A stretch of DNA of 50,420 nt from assembly GCA_964635815.1 (NCBI GenBank), contig CAZWQH010000001.1:1-50420 (forward strand), written 5' to 3'. Each line of letters begins with the position of its first letter. Positions within the stretch are counted from its first letter, which is position 1. This document shows positions 39,840 through 48,667 of the stretch, one piece after another. The notes beneath the pieces were generated by a model. It saw only the letters and a program-made list of their open reading frames with translations. It ran no database searches and was not told where the DNA came from. Source of the stretch: an uncultured Sandaracinaceae bacterium. Lineage in GTDB: Bacteria; Myxococcota_A; Polyangia; Polyangiales; JADJQN01. A program made the translations under genes and the position numbers.

Positions 39840-41855
39840 ATGCCTGCTTCCATGCGATATCGAACCGCGGTTTTCCTTGCCTTCACGTTCGCGTGCGCGT
39901 CCGTTGCGTGCGGCGGCGCGAGCCCGAGCACGACCACGACCACGACGACTGCTGCGCCAATCCCACGCGCCCGTTTCAATCAGCTCGCACTGCGATTGAA
40001 TCTTCCCCTCTTGTGGGCAGATGACACCAACGGAAACGCGGCGCCGGATCCTGGCGAGGTTCGCTCCCTAATCTTCTACGGCTCGAATGCGACCTGGGTT
40101 CAGAACAACGCGTTCACAAGCGAGTACGTAGCTGCGCTCGCCCGCATTCACGCCGAGGCGAACGCGAGTCCGCCGAGTGATCCGCGCCGGGCGCTTGTGG
40201 TCGAAGAGCTCAATCGAACGGTGCCCACGCTCATCGAGACGGATATGTCGAGTGTGCCCGAAGGACACCGCGAGTTCGTGGGGCACATGTTCAATGTCGC
40301 TAGGCTCATGGACCAGCTTTACGCGCGCCAAGTTGGAATGGACGTGCTCCATGCTCGACTCGAACCCGGCGATACTGCCAGCGCGAGCCTATTCCGAAAG
40401 AACTGGGGTCCTCGATGTCTCGGCTCGAGCACCGAGACCCAACCTGCGTGCTCCGCAATCGATGGTGCGCCCAAGCAACTCGTCGACGTGTACCCGGCGG
40501 AGTTGCAAACGTCGGATGGGTTCTGCGCTGATCTTGAAGCGCTCCCAGAAGCCTCACGGCTACTCTCGCCTTTCACGGTGGTGCGTGTAGACGGCGGCGA
40601 CCTCTACGCGGTTCCTTACTCCGAGGCTTACCGAGAGTTCATGGCCCCAATTTCTGCCGAACTTCGTGCAGCCGCCGATGCGATGACGGACCCGAACGAA
40701 ACCGCTCTCGTCACGTACCTGCGCGCTGCTGCGACGAGCTTCGAGACGAACGACTGGGTTCCTGCTGACGAAGCGTGGTCGCGAATGAGCGCGCGCAATT
40801 CAAGTTGGTACGTACGCGTTGGGCCAGACGAAACGTACTGGGAGCCCTGCAGCCAGAAGGCAGGCTTTCATCTGACTTTTGCTCGCATCAATCAAGGCTC
40901 GCTCGTGTGGCAGGATCGACTGTCGCCGCTTCGCGCGGAGATGGAGGGCGCGCTCTCGGCTCTCACGCCTAGGACTTATCGCCCTCGGGAGGTGAACTTC
41001 CAGCTGCCGGATTTCATCGACATTGTCCTCAACTCAGGCGATGACCGCGATGCGTTCGGCGCGACGATCGGACAGAGCTTGCCGAACTGGGGGCCCGTGT
41101 CGGATGACGGTCGCGGTCGCACCGTTGCGATGAGCAACCTCTATACCGACCAAGACAGCCTCACACGACGTCGCGCTCAGGCCTCGACGCTTCTCACCGC
41201 GGAAGCGCTCGCACCGTACACGGACGATCAAACCCCGGCCTTGCTCGCGACCATCCTTCACGAGGCAACGCACAACCTAGGTCCCTCGCACGAGTATCGA
41301 GTTGATGGAAAGACAGACGACGACGCGTTTGGCGGGTCGCTGGCATCGATGCTTGAGGAGCTCAAGGCACAGTCCGGCGGCCTCTTCTTCGTCGAGTTCC
41401 TCCGCTCGAGAGGCATTTTGAACGACGCACAAGCTCGAGAGGTCTACGTCGATTCAATCGTCTGGACGTTCGGTCACGTTTCGCGCGGCATGTACACGCC
41501 TTCTGGGCAGCGAAAGGCGTACAGCCAGCTCGCAGCCGTTCAGATTGGAGTCTTGATGGAGCTTGGCGCGTTGACGTGGGATGCGAGCGCAAGCTCTGCA
41601 GACGGAACTCGCGGAGCGTTCTCGATCGATTACGCAAAGCTGCCGGAAGCGTGCACGGAGCTCATGCGACGGGTGATGGTGATCAAATCCACCGCGGATC
41701 GCGCTGCCGCAGAAGCACTAGCGACTCGTTTCGTCGACGGCGACCGGGTTCCCCATGCCGCGATCGTCGATCGGTATCGCAACTTCCCACAGGCTAGCTT
41801 CGTGTTCAGTGTGCGCTCCGCGCTGGGTTCGCAGGCGCCGCAAACCGCGAACTGA
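39840..41855 (+). CDS. HExxH zinc metallopeptidase-like lipoprotein (M49 / DPP III-like)
   Basis: The ATG at 39840 gives MPASMRYRTAVFLAFTFACASVAC (lipobox) followed by a poly-Thr linker. The zinc motif ILHEATHNLGPSHEY is followed ~30 aa later by MLEELKAQ, which resembles the second M49 motif EExxAE. Confidence 0.6.
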   Translation: MPASMRYRTAVFLAFTFACASVACGGASPSTTTTTTTAAPIPRARFNQLALRLNLPLLWADDTNGNAAPDPGEVRSLIFYGSNATWVQNNAFTSEYVAALARIHAEANASPPSDPRRALVVEELNRTVPTLIETDMSSVPEGHREFVGHMFNVARLMDQLYARQVGMDVLHARLEPGDTASASLFRKNWGPRCLGSSTETQPACSAIDGAPKQLVDVYPAELQTSDGFCADLEALPEASRLLSPFTVVRVDGGDLYAVPYSEAYREFMAPISAELRAAADAMTDPNETALVTYLRAAATSFETNDWVPADEAWSRMSARNSSWYVRVGPDETYWEPCSQKAGFHLTFARINQGSLVWQDRLSPLRAEMEGALSALTPRTYRPREVNFQLPDFIDIVLNSGDDRDAFGATIGQSLPNWGPVSDDGRGRTVAMSNLYTDQDSLTRRRAQASTLLTAEALAPYTDDQTPALLATILHEATHNLGPSHEYRVDGKTDDDAFGGSLASMLEELKAQSGGLFFVEFLRSRGILNDAQAREVYVDSIVWTFGHVSRGMYTPSGQRKAYSQLAAVQIGVLMELGALTWDASASSADGTRGAFSIDYAKLPEACTELMRRVMVIKSTADRAAAEALATRFVDGDRVPHAAIVDRYRNFPQASFVFSVRSALGSQAPQTAN

Positions 41856-42114
41856 CCGCAGCGATCGGGCTCGCGCCGCTGAGCGCTTGGCTCGATCTCC
41901 AGCGACTGTTGCACCAGGATACGGCGTGCTTGGGGAGACGCAGAACCGCCTGCAACCGTCGTGGAGAACCTTCTCGGAATGCGTGGAAGTTCACGGGGTC
42001 GCGAGGTGATTGCGCGGATTGAGTTCGGCAGCGAACCAGGCGACATTCCGGTCTAAACGAGGGCTGGACGTTTCTTTTTTCGCTCGTGGACGCCAATCAA
42101 TAGGGAGGGAAAGC

Positions 42115-42561
42115 ATGAATGCAGAGAAGGTCATCCTCTTGGTGGAGGACAACAAAGACGAGCAGGAGCTCACGCTGCGCGCTTTGAAGAAGAACAACAT
42201 CCTCAACGAAGTCGTCATCGCGTCCGATGGCGAGGAGGCTTTGGATTTTCTGTTTTCGACGGGCTCGTACACAACGCGCGACCCAGGAGCGGCCCTGCCG
42301 CAAGTCGTTCTCCTGGATCTCAATCTACCCAGGATCAACGGTCTGGGCGTGTTGAAGCAGATTCGATCGCACGAGCGCACCAAGCTCATGCCGGTTGTCG
42401 TGCTCACTTCCTCTAAAGAGGAGGGGGACATTTTGAACAGCTACGCGCTCGGGGCGAACAGCTACGTGCGCAAGCCCGTCGATTTCGCGCAGTTCTCGGA
42501 CGCTGTCAAAGCTCTCGGGCTCTTCTGGCTGGTCCTCAACGAAACGGCACCGACGGCGTAG
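42115..42561 (+). CDS. single-domain response regulator (Rcp1/CheY-like)
   Basis: GGGAGGGA precedes the ATG. Sequence runs ILLVEDNKDEQ...VVLLDLNLP (Asp)...VVVLTSS...VRKPVDFAQFSDAVKALGLFWL. Confidence 0.9.
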   Translation: MNAEKVILLVEDNKDEQELTLRALKKNNILNEVVIASDGEEALDFLFSTGSYTTRDPGAALPQVVLLDLNLPRINGLGVLKQIRSHERTKLMPVVVLTSSKEEGDILNSYALGANSYVRKPVDFAQFSDAVKALGLFWLVLNETAPTA

Positions 42562-42601
42562 CAGCCCAGAGACGCAGAAAGAATCTGCGCTTGTTGGAGG
42601 G

Positions 42602-45544
42602 ATGATGGATTCAATCGAACTGAGCAAGGACGAGCTTCGTCTGTTGTTCGAGTCACTGCCGGAGCTGTACTTGGTGCTTTCGCCAAAGCTCATCATCGTA
42701 GAGATGACGGCCGCGTACGCACGCGCGACGCTTATTCATCGCTCAGACGCGATAGGACGGCACATCTTCGATGTGTTCCCGAACGATCCCAATGATGCCA
42801 ACGACGGCGTCCGGAATCTAAGGGCATCACTCGATCGAGTGCTCGCACGACGCGCCGTCGATGCAATGCCCATTCAGAAGTACGACGTCAGAAATCCGGA
42901 GACCGGCAAGTTCGAAGAACGTTTTTGGAGTCCGATCAACTCTCCAATCCTTTCTGGGACCAACGAGATCCGGTACATCCTACACAGGGTCGAGGACGTG
43001 ACCGAGTTCCTTCGAATGCGCGCGCGCGACGCGGAGGTGCAGCGCATCGCTGGCTTGGGAGACGACTCTGTTGAGCCAACGTCCGCTGTATTCACGCGGA
43101 CGCAGCAAGCTGCCGATGCGGCGCGTGAGATCAAAGAATCGAACGCCGAGCTCGAGCGTCTCTACGAACGCACCAAGGAGCTTGATGAGCTGAAAACCCA
43201 GTTTTTCGCAAACGTCAGCCACGAGCTGCGCACTCCCCTCGCGCTCATCTTGGGCCCGGTAGAACAGCTACTTGCATCCACCCGATTGGACGCGCGCGAG
43301 CGCCGCTCACTCAAGCTCGTCGAACGGAACGCTCGCCTGCTCATGAAGCACGTGAACGACCTCCTCGACGCATCGAAGCTCGAGGCCGGAGCGACAAAAA
43401 TCGAGTACGCGGACGTGGACCTGGCGTCGCATGTTCGATGGCTCGCATCGAATTTCGAATCACTGACCGAAGAGAAACGCATCGACTATCGCATTGAGGC
43501 GAGCGGACCGCTTCGCGCTCAAGTCGACCCCGACAAGACAGAGCGGATTCTGTTGAACCTTCTCTCCAATGCGATCAAGTTCACGCCGGACGGCGGCACG
43601 ATCCGATGCACGCTACGACAAGTCGCCTCGCGTGCGGTCATCGAGGTCGCCGACAGCGGCCCCGGCATCGCCGAGACTCAGCGCGAAGCAGTCTTCGAGC
43701 GTTTCACACAGCTTCAGGGCGGAACCACGCGCGAGTTCGGCGGCACGGGTCTCGGGCTTGCGATCGCGCGTGATTTTGCCCGTCTGCACGCAGGCACTCT
43801 TGTGGTCGCGGATTCGCCTGAAGGAGGCGCGCTGTTCACTTTGGAGCTCCCGCTGAACGCACCACCGGGCACGGAAGTACGTCGTTACACCGCGGGCCCA
43901 CATCACGCACGACTCAGCACGCCAAGCCAACCTCCATCGTCGTACGTGCGACCGATCACCGAAGAGCTTTCGCTTCTGGCTGACGAACTGGCTTCCGACT
44001 TGGATCGCCCCCTGATTCTTGTCGTCGAAGACAATCGCGACATGAGCGAGTTCATCACCGGCATCCTGCGAGTAAAGTATCGCGTCGAGGTCGCCTACAC
44101 GGGCGCCAGTGGGCTTGCTCGCGCGATCGATCTGAAACCAGACTTGATCCTCAGCGACATGATGATGCCGGAGATGAGCGGCCACGATCTCGTTCGAGCA
44201 TTACGTACTCACCGCGATCTGGACGGTACGCCGATCATCCTGCTTACCGCCAAAGGCGACGATCAGCTCCGCGTCAGCGTTCTGTGCGATGGTGCGAACG
44301 ACTTCCTGACGAAGCCATTCTCCAACGAGGAGCTAGTTGTGCGCGTGGACACACTCGTACGCTCGAAGAAGGCACACGAAAGGGTGGCCCGACTCAATGC
44401 CGAGCTTACAGCGACGCTCAGGGAGCTCTCTCGTCAGCAGAACGCTGGCCGAGCAACCACACAGTTCCTGGATACGGTTCTCGAGAGCATCCCGAATATG
44501 GTGTTCATCAAGGAGGCCGAGCGATTGGCCTTCGTGCGATTCAATCGCGCAGGCGAGGTCCTTTTGGGCGTTCCGCGACAAGAGCTGATCGGAAAGAATG
44601 ACTACGACTTCTTTCCGAAGGAAGAAGCGGACGCTTTCCAGGCGAAGGATCGCGAAACGCTTCGCAACAACCGACTCGTCGACATCCCGGAGGAGCCCAT
44701 CGAAACAAAGTCGGGGAAGCGATGGCTCCACACGAAGAAGGTGCCGATCGCCGGTCTCGATGGTACCGCCGAGTACCTTCTGGGTATCTCGGAAGACATC
44801 ACCGAGCGACGCGTTGCGGACGAGGCGCTGAGGCGCGCGCGCGACGCCGCGGAAGAAGCGAACCGGGAGCTCGAATCGTTCAGCTACTCCGTCGCGCACG
44901 ATCTTCGTGCCCCGCTTCGGAGCATCGATGGGTTCAGCCAGGCGCTTATCGAAGATTATGGGCATCGACTCGATGAAGATGGAAAGCGCTACCTCACGTT
45001 CGTTCGGGAATCTGCTCAACACATGGCGGAGCTCATCGACGACCTACTTACTCTCTCGCGGGTGACACGCAGCGATCTTCATCGGACGACTATCGACGTA
45101 TCCGAGATCGCGAGATCGGCGTTGACTCGCCTCCAACGCAGCGACTCGACGCGGAACGTAGACATTCAGATCGCGAGTGGTCTGACCGCCGACGCGGATC
45201 CGCGGCTTCTCACGGTCGTATTCGACAACCTGCTCGGCAACGCTTGGAAGTTCACCAGCAAGACTGCAAACGCTCGAATCGAGTTGTCGGCATCCGAGGA
45301 GAATGGTGAACGCGTCTATGCAATTCGCGACAACGGAGCGGGTTTTGACATGCAGTATGCGAACAAGCTGTTCGGCGTGTTTCAGCGTCTTCATTCGGCG
45401 ACTGATTTCGAAGGCACCGGCATCGGACTCGCAACGGTTCAACGCGTGATTCGCCGGCACGGTGGTCGCGTCTGGGCGGAGGGAAAGCCGGAGAACGGCG
45501 CGTCCTTCTTTTTCACCCTAGGGAGGCGCCGCGGCAATGGCTGA
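42602..45544 (+). CDS. hybrid sensor kinase with two complete transmitter modules (PAS-HisKA-HATPase-REC-PAS-HisKA-HATPase)
   Basis: First transmitter: H box NVSHELRTPL (His207), N box LLNLLSNAIKF, G1 DSGPGI, G2 GGTGLGLAI. Receiver: LILVVEDN / LILSDMMMP (Asp519) / LLTAKG / TKPF. Second transmitter: H box SVAHDLRAPL (His766), N box FDNLLGNAWKF, G1 RDNGAGF, G2 GTGIGLATV. PAS-like segments precede each DHp. Confidence 0.9.
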   Translation: MMDSIELSKDELRLLFESLPELYLVLSPKLIIVEMTAAYARATLIHRSDAIGRHIFDVFPNDPNDANDGVRNLRASLDRVLARRAVDAMPIQKYDVRNPETGKFEERFWSPINSPILSGTNEIRYILHRVEDVTEFLRMRARDAEVQRIAGLGDDSVEPTSAVFTRTQQAADAAREIKESNAELERLYERTKELDELKTQFFANVSHELRTPLALILGPVEQLLASTRLDARERRSLKLVERNARLLMKHVNDLLDASKLEAGATKIEYADVDLASHVRWLASNFESLTEEKRIDYRIEASGPLRAQVDPDKTERILLNLLSNAIKFTPDGGTIRCTLRQVASRAVIEVADSGPGIAETQREAVFERFTQLQGGTTREFGGTGLGLAIARDFARLHAGTLVVADSPEGGALFTLELPLNAPPGTEVRRYTAGPHHARLSTPSQPPSSYVRPITEELSLLADELASDLDRPLILVVEDNRDMSEFITGILRVKYRVEVAYTGASGLARAIDLKPDLILSDMMMPEMSGHDLVRALRTHRDLDGTPIILLTAKGDDQLRVSVLCDGANDFLTKPFSNEELVVRVDTLVRSKKAHERVARLNAELTATLRELSRQQNAGRATTQFLDTVLESIPNMVFIKEAERLAFVRFNRAGEVLLGVPRQELIGKNDYDFFPKEEADAFQAKDRETLRNNRLVDIPEEPIETKSGKRWLHTKKVPIAGLDGTAEYLLGISEDITERRVADEALRRARDAAEEANRELESFSYSVAHDLRAPLRSIDGFSQALIEDYGHRLDEDGKRYLTFVRESAQHMAELIDDLLTLSRVTRSDLHRTTIDVSEIARSALTRLQRSDSTRNVDIQIASGLTADADPRLLTVVFDNLLGNAWKFTSKTANARIELSASEENGERVYAIRDNGAGFDMQYANKLFGVFQRLHSATDFEGTGIGLATVQRVIRRHGGRVWAEGKPENGASFFFTLGRRRGNG

Positions 45545-45992
45545 TCAGAAGACAATCCTGTTGGTCGAGGACAACGCGAAAGACGAACAGCTCACGATTC
45601 GTGCCCTCAAGAAGGGAAACCTAGTAAACGAGATCGTCGTGGCGCGTGACGGTGCGGAGGCGCTCGACTACCTTTTCGCGCAAGGTGTGTACGAGGACCG
45701 AGACCCGCTAGACGCACCACAGGTCATGCTGCTTGACCTCAAGCTCCCGAAGGTAGACGGGCTCGAAGTTCTACGCGCGATACGCGAGGACCCGCGCACC
45801 AAGTATCTTCCGGTCGTCGTTCTGACCTCGTCGCTCGAGGATCAAGACCTGATTCGAAGTTACGGGCTAGGAGCGAACAGCTATGTCCGAAAGCCGGTGG
45901 ATTTCGTTCAGTTCACCGAGGCCGTAAAGCAACTCGGTTGCTACTGGCTTTTGGTCAACGTGCAGGCCCCAAGTCGAGCTAGCTCACCCTAG
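45537..45992 (+). CDS. single-domain response regulator (paralogue of 42115-42561)
   Basis: ILLVEDNAKDEQ...VMLLDLKLP...VVVLTSS...VRKPVDFVQFTEAVKQLGCYWL. The start overlaps the kinase stop by 8 nt (ATGGCTGA). Confidence 0.9.
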   Translation: MADQKTILLVEDNAKDEQLTIRALKKGNLVNEIVVARDGAEALDYLFAQGVYEDRDPLDAPQVMLLDLKLPKVDGLEVLRAIREDPRTKYLPVVVLTSSLEDQDLIRSYGLGANSYVRKPVDFVQFTEAVKQLGCYWLLVNVQAPSRASSP

Positions 45993-46402
45993 CGAGCGAA
46001 TTGACCCGTACCCTTTCCAACACAGCGCCCCTCGCGCGTTGATCGAACCGATCGCGCGACTGCTGAATCGCGGATCGATTCTTCTCCGACCACTCGGATA
46101 GCGCGCGCACAGGTTCGAGAAGCGTCACGCCCAAGCTCGTGAGCTGGTAGTCGACCCGCGGCGGAATCGTCGGAAACAAAGTGCGCGTGACAATGCCATC
46201 TCTCGAGACTCTTTAGCGTCAACGTCAACATTCGCTGGGAGATGCCGTCGATCTGGCGCTTGAGCTGATTGAATCGGACCGGACCTCTGCGAAGGGAGCT
46301 CACGATGTAGATGCTCCACTTGTCGCCGACACGGTTGAACCTCATGGATACGGCGATATCGACACCAAACACGTCCACGCATGGCGCGAGCAAAGCGATC
46401 AA
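45979..46402 (-). pseudogene. HxlR family transcriptional regulator interrupted by a frameshift
   Basis: The N-terminal half (VGDKWSIYIVSSLRRGPVRFNQLKRQIDGISQRMLTLTLKSLER) is in one frame. The C-terminal half (GIVTRTLFPTIPPRVDYQLTSLGVTLLEPVRALSEWSEKN) is in another. The switch occurs at the GAGAGA tract (plus 46199-46204). Confidence 0.75.
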
Positions 46403-46778
46403 CGTGTCCCTTTGGGTCGCTCAGTCCGTTCTCGGTTTTGTGTTCGCGTTCGCGGACTTCACCAAGTCATTCACTCCGATTCAGGAGCTCGCGCTCAGGA
46501 TGCCGTGGGCTGCTGTCTTGCCGGAAGCACTCGTCCGGTTCATCGGTGTCTCGGAGCTCGCGGGCGGAATCGGGTTGCTTCTACCCGCGTTGACGCGCGT
46601 CCAACCGAGGCTGACTCCAATCGCCGCGTCCGGCCTGGTTGTGATCATGGTGCTCGCTGCTGCGTTCGACATCATGCACGGTGAGTACTCGGCGGTTCCG
46701 ATCAACGTCGTGCTTGGTGGGCTCGCGGCGTTTATTGCGTGGGGTCGGTTCACGCGGTTCCAGATCCAGTCTCGCTGA
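46344..46778 (+). CDS. DoxX family membrane protein
   Basis: From ATG 46344: four hydrophobic helices with a DoxX-like pattern (INVSLWVAQSVLGFVFAFADFTK...FIGVSELAGGIGLLLP...). Divergent from the HxlR gene, a common pairing. Confidence 0.7.
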   Translation: MDTAISTPNTSTHGASKAINVSLWVAQSVLGFVFAFADFTKSFTPIQELALRMPWAAVLPEALVRFIGVSELAGGIGLLLPALTRVQPRLTPIAASGLVVIMVLAAAFDIMHGEYSAVPINVVLGGLAAFIAWGRFTRFQIQSR

Positions 46779-46779
46779 G

Positions 46780-47460
46780 CTAGTTTGCGACCTGCTCACC
46801 GGTGCGGCGGCGCTTTTCCTTCCGCTTGCGTGAGTACATGTCTGCGTCGGCGCGCTTGATCAACGCATCGATTGTCTCGGTTTCGGCCAGCTCCGCAGTT
46901 CCAAACGAGATAGCCGCACCGCCGTGTGGCGCTCCCTTCAGCGATTCACGCACACGTTCGAGAACGAGCATCGCGGATTGCGTCGGAGCGCCGACGAGGA
47001 TCAATGCGAACTCGTCACCGCCGAGCCGGTAGGCGTGATCGACGTGTTGACGTACGCACTTCTGGAGGACGCCGCCTACGAATGTGAGCACCTCGTCTCC
47101 AGCCACGTGTCCCTTTGTGTCGTTCGTGAGCTTGAAGTCGTCGAGATCCAGGTACACGAGCACGAGGGGACTCTTCAGTCTGCGTGCGCGCGCAACTTCG
47201 ATCGGGAGGTCGGTATTGAATCTGCGCGAGTTGAGCAAACCTGTGAGCGCGTCCGTTTCCGCGAGCGCGGCGAGCTGAATCTGCTGGCGCCGAAACGTGA
47301 ACGCACCGAGTCCGAGCAACGCACCCAAGATGAGATCCGTGAGGAGCTCCGAGGGAGTGTTCGGAAGATTGCCGGTCTCGATGTACTCCGTGAGCGTAGG
47401 AACCAATGCGATCAAATAGATCCACGGAACCCGCGAAACGGTACGACTCGCGCTATTCAC
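46780..47460 (-). CDS. membrane-anchored diguanylate cyclase (GGDEF)
   Basis: Two N-terminal helices, then DALTGLLNSRRF...LDLDDFKLTNDTKGHVAGDEVL...RLGGDEFALIL. No RxxD I-site lies 5 aa upstream of GGDEF. Confidence 0.85.
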   Translation of the reverse strand: MNSASRTVSRVPWIYLIALVPTLTEYIETGNLPNTPSELLTDLILGALLGLGAFTFRRQQIQLAALAETDALTGLLNSRRFNTDLPIEVARARRLKSPLVLVYLDLDDFKLTNDTKGHVAGDEVLTFVGGVLQKCVRQHVDHAYRLGGDEFALILVGAPTQSAMLVLERVRESLKGAPHGGAAISFGTAELAETETIDALIKRADADMYSRKRKEKRRRTGEQVAN

Positions 47461-48667
47461 GCGGAACCTCTTTTGGAGGCGGGGTCCATGCCTCGCTCGA
47501 CGCTAACGCGCTCGACTTTTCGCGGTCCTCCGTCGAGCCAATGAACGGGAAGAGCAGCTGGGCAACGAATGACGGAGGGACGTAGTCACCGATGACCCCG
47601 TAACGGCGAGGCCACATCCGATCGGCCGTCACCGCTGTCCCAAAGGCGTAGTCCAGAAACGCGAAATGCGCGGCGTAGTTCTTGTCGACTGCCTCCGTAT
47701 CGCGCGAGTGATGCCAGTGATGAAAGTTGGGCGTGACGATCACGTAGCGAAGCGGACCCAAACGTACGCTCACGTTGCAGTGATTGAAGACGGCTTGGAA
47801 GCCCACGATGACGACGTAGGAGTTGATCACGCGCTCCGAAAAGCCGAGAAAAAAGATTGGCGCGAGCACGAACATGCGTGTGATGAGGAGCTCCGCCACG
47901 TGCTGACGCGAGCCCGCGATCCAGTCCATGGACTTGGCGCTGTGATGAACCGAGTGAATCCGCCAAAGGAATGGGACCTCGTGGTATGCGCGATGGGTCC
48001 AGTACTGAAACAGGTCCGCGACGAGCACGACCAACAACAGCTGAATGACAAAAGGGAGCCCGTTCACCAGGCTTTGAAGGTTCCCGTTTACAGCCCAACC
48101 GAGTGACGCATGCACGGTGTGGTTAACGACGAAGAGCACGAACCCGACGATCAAGTGGTTGAAAATGAAATGCGCGAGGTCTGTTTGCCATTCCGCTCTG
48201 AACACGGGCTGATCGACCCGAAGAGGCATCAACTTTTCGAGGACCACGAAGATGAGCGTCGAACCGAGCAGATCCAGGATCAGGAAATCAAGTCCTAGGT
48301 ACGGCGTGTGATCTGGAAAGTCCGGGATGGGCGTCGTCGGTCCACCCAAGACCTGTGCGACGACCAGCACCGTGAACGCCACCGCCGCAAGCCAACGGGA
48401 CCGCCCGAGGATGATGTTCCCAAGAGAGACGCCCCCGGCGACCACCATCGCACCGAGCATGATGTACCGAAGGGTGGTGACGTCATAAACGTGCCGCATC
48501 TCCGGCGTCGAGAGGTACGCTGGAAAATGAAACGCGATGACTCCGAGCAGACTGCATACGGCGAGTGTCAGAGCAACGACGCCGGAGAGGAGGCCCGTTC
48601 CGCGTCGCAGGTCACCATGGGAAGTAACCAGCTGGGTAAGCTTCTGGGACGGATCGTTTTCGCTCAC
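47453..48667 (-). CDS. fatty acid hydroxylase / sterol desaturase family membrane protein (long N-terminal membrane extension)
   Basis: His boxes HRAYH, HSVHHSAKSMDW and FHHWHHS. About six extra N-terminal helices. The 3' end overlaps the GGDEF gene start by 8 nt. Confidence 0.85.
   Translation of the reverse strand: MSENDPSQKLTQLVTSHGDLRRGTGLLSGVVALTLAVCSLLGVIAFHFPAYLSTPEMRHVYDVTTLRYIMLGAMVVAGGVSLGNIILGRSRWLAAVAFTVLVVAQVLGGPTTPIPDFPDHTPYLGLDFLILDLLGSTLIFVVLEKLMPLRVDQPVFRAEWQTDLAHFIFNHLIVGFVLFVVNHTVHASLGWAVNGNLQSLVNGLPFVIQLLLVVLVADLFQYWTHRAYHEVPFLWRIHSVHHSAKSMDWIAGSRQHVAELLITRMFVLAPIFFLGFSERVINSYVVIVGFQAVFNHCNVSVRLGPLRYVIVTPNFHHWHHSRDTEAVDKNYAAHFAFLDYAFGTAVTADRMWPRRYGVIGDYVPPSFVAQLLFPFIGSTEDREKSSALASSEAWTPPPKEVPRE

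Follow-up and report, generated by a model that had tools for sequence, protein, structure and literature searches.

A predicted LvrA-type dual-transmitter kinase flanked by two stand-alone receivers in an uncultured Sandaracinaceae bacterium

When two complete histidine-kinase transmitters and a receiver are joined in one polypeptide, and further receivers are encoded on either side of its gene, which transmitter serves which receiver? This question is raised by a three-gene locus in an uncultured Sandaracinaceae bacterium (GCA_964635815.1, contig CAZWQH010000001.1). The stretch analysed, positions 1 to 50,420 of the contig with a GC content of about 60%, is hereafter called the window. The locus consists of a gene for a stand-alone receiver (RR1), a gene for a soluble dual-transmitter hybrid histidine kinase of 980 residues, and a gene for a second stand-alone receiver (RR2). 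By sequence comparison the kinase is an uncharacterised, PAS-inserted member of the LvrA-type family, in which the architecture of TodS is combined with the sequence of the LvrA family and with a different output.

Domain order and catalytic sites of the kinase

The first-pass annotation of this DNA, made from the letters alone, had described a single uninterrupted chain of the order PAS-HK-REC-PAS-HK (HK, histidine kinase; REC, receiver), and this description was borne out. The open reading frame (ORF) is read through with no stop or frame change, and in a Pfam run on the whole kinase and on five sub-segments all seven domains, in the order PAS-DHp-CA-REC-PAS-DHp-CA, exceeded the gathering scores (Table 1). 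Both DHp/ATPase pairs (hereafter HK1 and HK2) were supported well above the Pfam thresholds. The phospho-sites H207 (nucleotide (nt) 43220), D519 (nt 44156) and H766 (nt 44897) have the motifs and positions that had been assigned to them. No transmembrane segment was found in the 980-residue kinase (maximum KD19 value 1.41), and no GAF or PHY domain was matched by Pfam in the whole protein or its sub-segments.

The catalytic sites were compared among 58 homologues. Conservation is complete or nearly so in all four boxes (N, G1, F, G2) of CA1 and of CA2 and in E476-D477, D519, T549 and K571 of the receiver; for the catalytic residues of CA2 it is complete. The order of the domains and the integrity of the catalytic sites are thus directly established. 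Identity between the two kinase cores is only 30%, which indicates different subtypes rather than a recent internal duplication. In sequence searches of the PDB, core 1 resembles HK853/WalK-like kinases best, and the best matches of core 2 are the bacteriophytochrome kinase modules 9YS3, 8UPH and 8F71.

In an AlphaFold2 model built with the 58-sequence alignment, all seven domains are folded, with a mean predicted local distance difference test (pLDDT) score of 82. Helix α5 of the receiver is prolonged as a helix of residues 575-599. A second helix, residues 734-789, runs unbroken from the second PAS domain (PAS2) into DHp2 and through H766; PAS2 itself terminates in a DITERR motif 34 residues upstream of H766.

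The N-terminal PAS domain (PAS_N) is of the FDVFPDNP...QKYDIR...FWSPxNSP type and scores 218 bits with its own model. Many of its residues are invariant across phyla in the 58 sequences, for example Y39, T43, R47, F59-P60, Q92, D95, W109-S110, N113 and P115. Searched for alone, PAS_N was found in 1327 representative clusters at E<=1e-30 and in 4769 at 1e-10, in proteins of 183-1494 residues. This module, which defines the family, is unusually conserved and occurs with many different outputs. A PDB sequence search with PAS_N gave zero relatives, TodS PAS1 included.

Table 1. Coordinates of the three-gene locus, of the domains of the kinase and of other features of the window
Feature	Residues	Position (nt)	Strand	Remarks
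Dual-transmitter hybrid histidine kinase	980 aa	42602..45544	+	Soluble; LvrA-type family (by sequence), TodS-like seven-domain order
PAS_N sensor domain	16-136	42647..43009	+	PAS_4 31 bits; pLDDT >90
DHp1 (HisKA) with H207	198-263	43193..43390	+	H-box FFANVSHELRTPLALI
CA1 (HATPase_c)	309-419	43526..43858	+	98 bits; N, G1, F, G2 boxes intact
Internal receiver (Response_reg)	472-582	44015..44347	+	91 bits; E476 D477, D519, T549, K571
PAS2 (PAS_4/PAS/PAS_9)	627-737	44480..44812	+	PAS_4 62 bits; between receiver and DHp2
DHp2 (HisKA) with H766	758-821	44873..45064	+	H-box SFSYSVAHDLRAPLRSI, bacteriophytochrome/Cph1-type
CA2 (HATPase_c)	866-974	45197..45523	+	77 bits; N880, D910/G912/G914, F924/F927, G938/G940/G942 intact
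RR1, stand-alone BRR/Rcp1-type receiver	148 aa	42115..42561	+	Response_reg 70 bits; phospho-Asp D68 (nt 42316)
RR2, stand-alone BRR/Rcp1-type receiver	151 aa	45537..45992	+	Phospho-Asp D67 (nt 45735)
ORF without Pfam match	755 aa	39588..41855	+	HExxH-like motif (HEATHNLGPSH); Thr-rich lipoprotein-like N-terminal stretch
HxlR-family gene		45989..46402	-	Convergent with RR2; frameshift near 46190
GGDEF protein	226 aa	46780..47460	-	Predicted membrane N-terminus
Fatty-acid hydroxylase family gene		47453..48667	-	Stop overlapped by GGDEF gene (8 nt)
Other two-component signal	126 and 152 aa	24546..25381	-	Receiver-like ORF (126 aa) and adjacent ORF (152 aa) with weak partial kinase match

Family membership and the partner of the second transmitter

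The best NCBIfam match of the kinase by far is the LvrA model (NF047465), which scored 848 bits and aligned residues 9-630 with profile positions 2-629 of 819. This score is below the curated cut-off of 1200, and the protein is therefore no LvrA equivalog. LvrA of Leptospira is a protein of 832 residues with the order PAS-DHp-CA-REC-DHp-CA and the sites H218, D524 and H616 (Adhikarla et al. 2018, PMC5863495). The window kinase is 42% identical to it over residues 1-604 and 37% identical over residues 720-975. The H-boxes are nearly identical, the first pair being SQFFANVSHELRTPL / SQFFANVSHELRTPLTLI and the second pair ESFSYSVSHDLRAP; the H218 box of LvrA is thus nearly identical to that of DHp1, and its H616 box, ESFSYSVSHDLRAPILGI, is matched by that of DHp2. 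HK1 (SHELRTPL), REC and HK2 (SHDLRAP) are collinear in one chain, also with the homologues P0002, P0007 and P0028. Both proteins are soluble, carry two His sites and one Asp site per chain, and have the same types of PAS, HK1, REC and HK2. Membership in the family is in this respect directly established.

Two differences from LvrA are clear. The window protein has about 150 extra residues, a helix and PAS2, between REC and DHp2. In addition, its partners are two single-domain receivers of the bacteriophytochrome response regulator (BRR) type, whereas the partner of LvrA is LvrB, a REC-HK protein. No lvrB-like gene (REC-DHp-CA) was found in the 50-kb window, and the gene downstream of the kinase encodes the 151-residue RR2. 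The PDB entry 12AW, considered as an LvrA fragment, was rejected; it is a Bacteroides-type hybrid two-component receiver.

The architecture is not confined to this genome. The isolate Paramagnetospirillum caucaseum SO-1 has a full-length collinear homologue (44% identity over residues 11-973). A database search gave thousands of homologues of about 830 residues from metagenomes and a minority of about 970 residues that cover 98-99% of the query; when they were aligned together, the two size classes proved collinear over both kinase cores. Although the first-pass annotation had called two full transmitters in one polypeptide "not a textbook architecture", proteins of this kind are rare but form a described class, represented by TodS/TmoS/StyS, by LvrA and by the TRT/TRTR foci. 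In the survey of Williams & Whitworth (2010), 51 of 4650 hybrid kinases had two transmitters; 262 TRTR foci were also recorded, and TodST was cited as a characterised TRT-R relay. Given these papers on LvrA, TodS and two-transmitter proteins, we rejected the idea of an unprecedented architecture.

To place the locus within the family, species-representative genomes were scanned. Among the candidates listed, 580 of 600 were confirmed and 80 loci were kept, the ORFs of which were then scanned with domain models built from the family alignment; the counts that follow cover the matches listed. The loci belong to Leptospira, Legionella, Nocardia, Sorangium, Nostoc, Paramagnetospirillum and many metagenome-assembled genomes (MAGs). 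The order PAS_N-HK1-REC-HK2 was found in 26 loci, and a PAS domain precedes HK2 in 5 loci including the window. Another kind of second kinase, often with a further receiver, is present in 21 loci, and the second kinase is absent from 25. Three loci (L045, L055 and L075) encode PAS_N-PAS-PAS-HK2 proteins without HK1-REC. Two-transmitter chains occur in 52 of the 81 loci examined.

The distribution of the BRR genes among these loci was informative. A BRR gene lies downstream of the kinase at 15 of the 34 loci in which the HK2 type is present; at the 46 loci with HK1-REC and without the HK2 type there is none (Fisher p = 2.8e-7). The BRR gene follows directly on the kinase gene in all five dual kinases with a PAS before HK2 and in all three single-kinase PAS_N-PAS-PAS-HK2 proteins. 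Genomic coupling of kinase 2 with the BRR is therefore directly established. The nearest relatives of HK2 and of the receivers are in Polyangiaceae and Sandaracinaceae MAGs, which, together with the GC content, suggests a myxobacterial origin.

The two receivers of the window were said by the first-pass annotation to be paralogues of about 60% identity and of the Rcp1 type, and both statements agree with our results. RR1 and RR2 are 61.2% identical over 147 residues, and each is a single Response_reg domain in which the acidic pair, the phospho-Asp (D68 and D67, respectively), the Thr and the Lys are kept. Among proteins of solved structure, RR2 is closest to two bacteriophytochrome response regulators, 5BRJ (E 6e-46) and 5IC5 (E 2e-41), and then to RcpA, Rcp1 and RcpB. 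Both receivers carry the C-terminal extension F..F....LG.(Y/F)W, as do 5BRJ, 5IC5, RcpA and Rcp1. BRR-type receivers form arm-in-arm dimers (Baker et al. 2016, as cited in PMC6848086), and the likeness to 5BRJ and 5IC5 suggests that RR1 and RR2 may do the same.

RR2 is 70% identical to the downstream BRR of L002, a Polyangiaceae MAG locus, and 67% identical to that of L075, against 60% to RR1 in the same comparison. Its ATG and the stop of the kinase gene share 8 nt (ATGGCTGA), as had been noticed in the first reading, and RR2 is predicted to be translationally coupled to the kinase through this overlap. Judged by position and sequence, RR2 is the orthologue of the downstream BRRs of HK2-type kinases and the conserved partner of kinase 2. 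RR1, whose ATG is preceded by a Shine-Dalgarno-like GGGAGGG, clusters in the tree beside RR2 and the BRRs of L002 and L075 and branches just outside their group. The start of helix α1 is unlike between the two receivers (KDEQE in RR1, AKDEQ in RR2). When the domain order was sought in other genomes together with the pair of receivers, the order and the downstream BRR were found again, but an upstream BRR is present in the window alone among the 81 loci examined; the small upstream receivers of L018, L025 and L038 are not BRR-type. RR1 is thus, as far as sequence can tell, an additional paralogue specific to the lineage of the window, and the one local peculiarity of the operon.

The first reading had assigned to each transmitter a separate receiver as output. 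This proposal is not supported by the comparison, since both receivers fall in the BRR/Rcp1 clade and BRR genes follow the HK2 type even where HK1-REC is missing. Because a downstream BRR occurs only with the HK2 type, RR1 and RR2 are both most likely outputs of kinase 2.

The arrangement resembles the bacteriophytochrome/BRR pairs (Cph1-Rcp1 and RtBphP1-RtBRR), in which a Rcp1/BRR-type receiver with the C-terminal extension is likewise encoded directly after the kinase. It differs from them in that the window kinase has no PAS-GAF-PHY bilin-binding core, and the input to HK2 is a receiver and a PAS domain instead of a bilin chromophore. In L002 (6772-8781), the closest PAS-containing relative, the downstream BRR gene is followed by a REC-HK-REC gene. 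This order resembles that of BphP, BRR and hybrid kinase in Ramlibacter (PMC6848086). Unlike in L002, no third gene of the REC-HK-REC kind follows RR2 in the window.

Proposed signal flow between the two transmitters

The connection between REC and DHp2 was analysed in 145 family members. The linker lengths peak at 13, 20, 27, 34, 41, 55 and 62 residues, which is a heptad series. In 127 of the 145 the linker does not exceed 66 residues, and most of these lengths lie on the series 13+7n. The linker of the window protein, in which a PAS domain is contained, has 161 residues and is not a short heptad-phased direct linker. The distance from the DIT motif of PAS2 to the phospho-His is 34 residues in the window protein and L002, 27 in L055 and 41 in L045, and is fixed at 45 in the α/β-proteobacterial lineage. 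These regularities suggest coiled-coil coupling into DHp2. The heptad series matches the periodicity of the αS helix in the Rec-controlled kinases described in the 2026 paper on LvrB (PMC13269768). The logic REC-(helix)-DHp-CA of LvrB and PhcR, with heptad-phased αS linkers, recurs in the PAS-less family members; the window protein differs from LvrB and PhcR in that its REC-HK part is fused behind an upstream kinase of its own and a PAS domain interrupts the αS connector.

A single origin of the PAS2-containing members was considered and is not supported. In a neighbour-joining tree of the four shared domains, which has no bootstrap and is indicative only, PAS-bearing members are scattered over at least five positions, and PAS-less proteins form the sister of the window protein. 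Its identity over the shared domains is 57-61% with the nearest PAS-less proteins and 48-56% with PAS-bearing ones. PAS2 of the window has only 20-34% identity with its counterparts in other dual-kinase lineages, but 60% with the PAS that precedes HK2 in two single-kinase proteins, those of L045 and L055. It would seem that the signalling helix between REC and DHp2 has received PAS domains repeatedly, each time in a heptad-compatible register.

We infer the direction of phosphoryl flow, the choice between gating and relay, and the partners of RR1 from these comparisons. The operon RR1-kinase-RR2 probably encodes a serial pathway, in which PAS_N would act on HK1, HK1 on the internal receiver, and the receiver on HK2 by gating, with PAS2 as a second input, before the signal reaches RR2 and RR1. 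An input of unspecified nature at the conserved PAS_N would set the autokinase activity of transmitter 1 (H207). The phosphoryl group of H207 would then be passed to D519 of the internal receiver within the dimer. Phosphorylation of the receiver would be conveyed via the extended α5 and PAS2 to the helix of H766, and transmitter 2 would be switched between a kinase-off and a kinase-on state, as in LvrB, where phosphorylation of Rec leads to coiled-coil formation and frees the CA domain (PMC13269768). PAS2 may serve as the second input at this switch. Transmitter 2 would autophosphorylate from ATP and phosphorylate RR2, and probably RR1 as well; as neither receiver has an output domain, both would act by protein-protein interaction.

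The flow from kinase 1 through the internal receiver to kinase 2, which had been suggested at the first reading, agrees with the published working model of LvrA. In LvrA, H218 preferentially phosphorylates D524 of its own chain, and the phosphorylated REC has been proposed to control the effector kinase (PMC5863495). The serial His-Asp-His-Asp route, which has been established by experiment for TodS, is in line with the same order.

Several points weigh against the serial, gated pathway. The downstream BRR is present in only 7 of the 26 PAS-less LvrA-type loci, so that a BRR partner is optional in this family. The first kinase of LvrA phosphorylates LvrB in vitro, and HK1 could therefore have an external target. 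The second transmitter of TodS takes its phosphoryl group from the receiver in a true relay, so that gating is not the sole precedent. The connector between REC and PAS2 (residues 601-622) is specific to the window protein and has a pLDDT below 50, and helical continuity from REC to PAS2 is thus only putative.

A different wiring would be the four-step phosphorelay of TodS, in which the phosphoryl group would pass from H207 to D519, then to H766 of a DHp2 that behaves like an HPt domain, and finally to RR2 and RR1, the use of ATP by CA2 being only basal. We consider this unlikely. TodS of Pseudomonas putida, a "seven-domain sensor kinase" of 978 residues (PAS1 43-168, H190, D500, PAS2 611-729, H760; PMC4861429), has TmoS and StyS as homologues (PMC4321377, PMC4861429), and its His1-Asp1-His2-Asp2 relay to TodT has been demonstrated (Busch et al. 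2009, as cited in PMC4321377 and PMC4861429). Its seven-domain order is found in the soluble window protein with nearly the same spacing (980 against 978 residues; H207/D519/H766 against H190/D500/H760). StyS (L081, Pseudomonas sp. VLB120 plasmid pSTY, 2539-5466) was aligned collinearly with residues 175-968 of the window kinase (31% identity, E 3e-109), and its H187 box is nearly identical to the DHp1 H-box. On the LvrA-family models, HK1 and REC of StyS score 265 and 128 bits, inside the family range; unrelated hybrid kinases in the loci score about 50-180 bits. As in the window, a response-regulator gene lies directly downstream and overlaps the kinase stop (by 4 nt in StyS-StyR). These facts suggest that the LvrA-type and TodS/StyS double kinases share a common HK1-REC front module and have different sensors and back-end kinases.

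It is at the back end that the relay loses ground. HK2 of StyS is of the THELNQPL subtype (SITHELNQPL), as in TodS, whereas HK2 of the window is SHDLRAPL; StyS reaches 51 bits on the HK2 model, against 385 for self. The subtype found in the window is a self-sufficient sensor kinase with a BRR in L045, L055 and L075. Its ATP-binding residues in CA2 are invariant, and the heptad phasing of the linkers between REC and DHp2 is characteristic of allosteric coupling through helices, for which a pure relay would have no need. For these three reasons, namely the invariant CA2, the stand-alone HK2 with BRR and the phasing of the linkers, gating is preferred over a relay like that of TodS. Membership of the window kinase in the TodS/StyS group proper was also rejected, since the window kinase is unlike that group in PAS1, HK2 subtype, partner regulator and genomic context. 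PAS1 of StyS is unrelated: the alignment starts at residue 175, and the PAS_N model gave no significant match on it. TodS PAS1, for which crystal structures have been reported (PMC4861429), was likewise not recovered with PAS_N. StyR is a DNA-binding regulator of the NarL/FixJ type beside styrene catabolic genes, whereas the partners of the window kinase are single-domain receivers; no aromatic catabolic operon was found among the neighbours of the window kinase (Ada, HxlR, DoxX, GGDEF and others).

Less probable still is a branched device with two outputs, in which the targets of HK1 would be the internal REC and also RR1 or some other external receiver, and HK2 would serve RR2. The paralogous receivers would then each report on a different kinase state, possibly in the form of a heterodimer. 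A branched pathway has been proposed for LvrA, whose H218 phosphorylates the separate LvrB in vitro (PMC5863495). RR1 and RR2 are no closer than 61% identity and differ at the start of α1, and the lineage-specific addition of RR1 calls for an explanation. The position of RR1 in the tree is nevertheless that of a typical BRR, beside RR2 and the RR2 orthologues. The family members with HK1-REC but without the HK2 type, 46 in all, have no BRR, and the upstream small receivers known from other loci are of another type. A slightly more doubtful form of this idea is that RR1 is phosphorylated by HK1 and RR2 by HK2, and that an arm-in-arm heterodimer depends on both phosphorylation states. If this were true, the three-gene operon would contain a built-in coincidence detector, which responds to the PAS_N signal and the PAS2 signal together.

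It is quite improbable that one of the transmitters is degenerate, as a pseudokinase or a phosphatase only, and that the protein behaves as an ordinary hybrid kinase. The H-box of HK2 (HDLRAP) has no T or N at position +4. In HisKA kinases, T or N at this position of the H-box is linked to phosphatase activity. A precedent exists in the T2 transmitter of RedE, which is incapable of autophosphorylation (Williams & Whitworth 2010). In both cores of the window protein the His and all four ATPase boxes (N, G1, F and G2) are intact, and they are invariant in the 58 homologues; moreover, both cores score far above the Pfam thresholds and fold confidently in AlphaFold2. The last alternative, that a sequencing or assembly error at 43.9-44.9 kb, by which a stop or frameshift was missed, fused two ordinary adjacent genes, can practically be dismissed: the contig is apparently metagenome-derived and the neighbouring HxlR gene is frameshifted, but all 980 residues are collinear, and ungapped at the domain junctions, with homologues of the same domain order from many independent genomes, which excludes a missed gene boundary, and the fused state is the norm of the family (52 of 81 loci).

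Neighbouring genes and meaning for the family

Upstream of the operon lie the 755-residue ORF and an Ada-type gene. The annotated start of the ORF overlaps the Ada gene, on the opposite strand, by about 390 nt, and the true start is therefore probably later. Downstream are the HxlR gene and then genes for DoxX, GGDEF, fatty-acid hydroxylase, GT4 glycosyltransferase and YceI proteins. In frame 0 the HxlR gene reads ...LTLTLKSLER and the rest of the domain (DGIVTRTLFPTIPPRVDYQLTSLG...) is in another frame; the Pfam match spans only profile positions 2-45 of 91. Either the gene is a pseudogene or the contig has a sequencing error here. The overlap of the GGDEF gene with the stop of the upstream fatty-acid hydroxylase gene suggests that these two are co-translated. 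The window contains only one other two-component signal (Table 1). A scan of 41700-46500 for promoters and terminators gave nothing above chance, and the neighbouring genes provided no link of the operon to a particular pathway.

The textbook picture of two-component signalling is unchanged by this locus, as the architecture was already known and is common in environmental bacteria. The window kinase is a clean and intact example from a large, almost unstudied family of double kinases, the sole characterised member of which, LvrA, controls virulence in Leptospira. PAS_N is a very widespread and highly conserved sensor. The back module of the LvrA family is a kinase of the phytochrome type, whose natural genomic partner is a receiver of the BRR/Rcp1 type. 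This pairing of kinase 2 with the BRR suggests where the output of the second kinase of LvrA may be sought.

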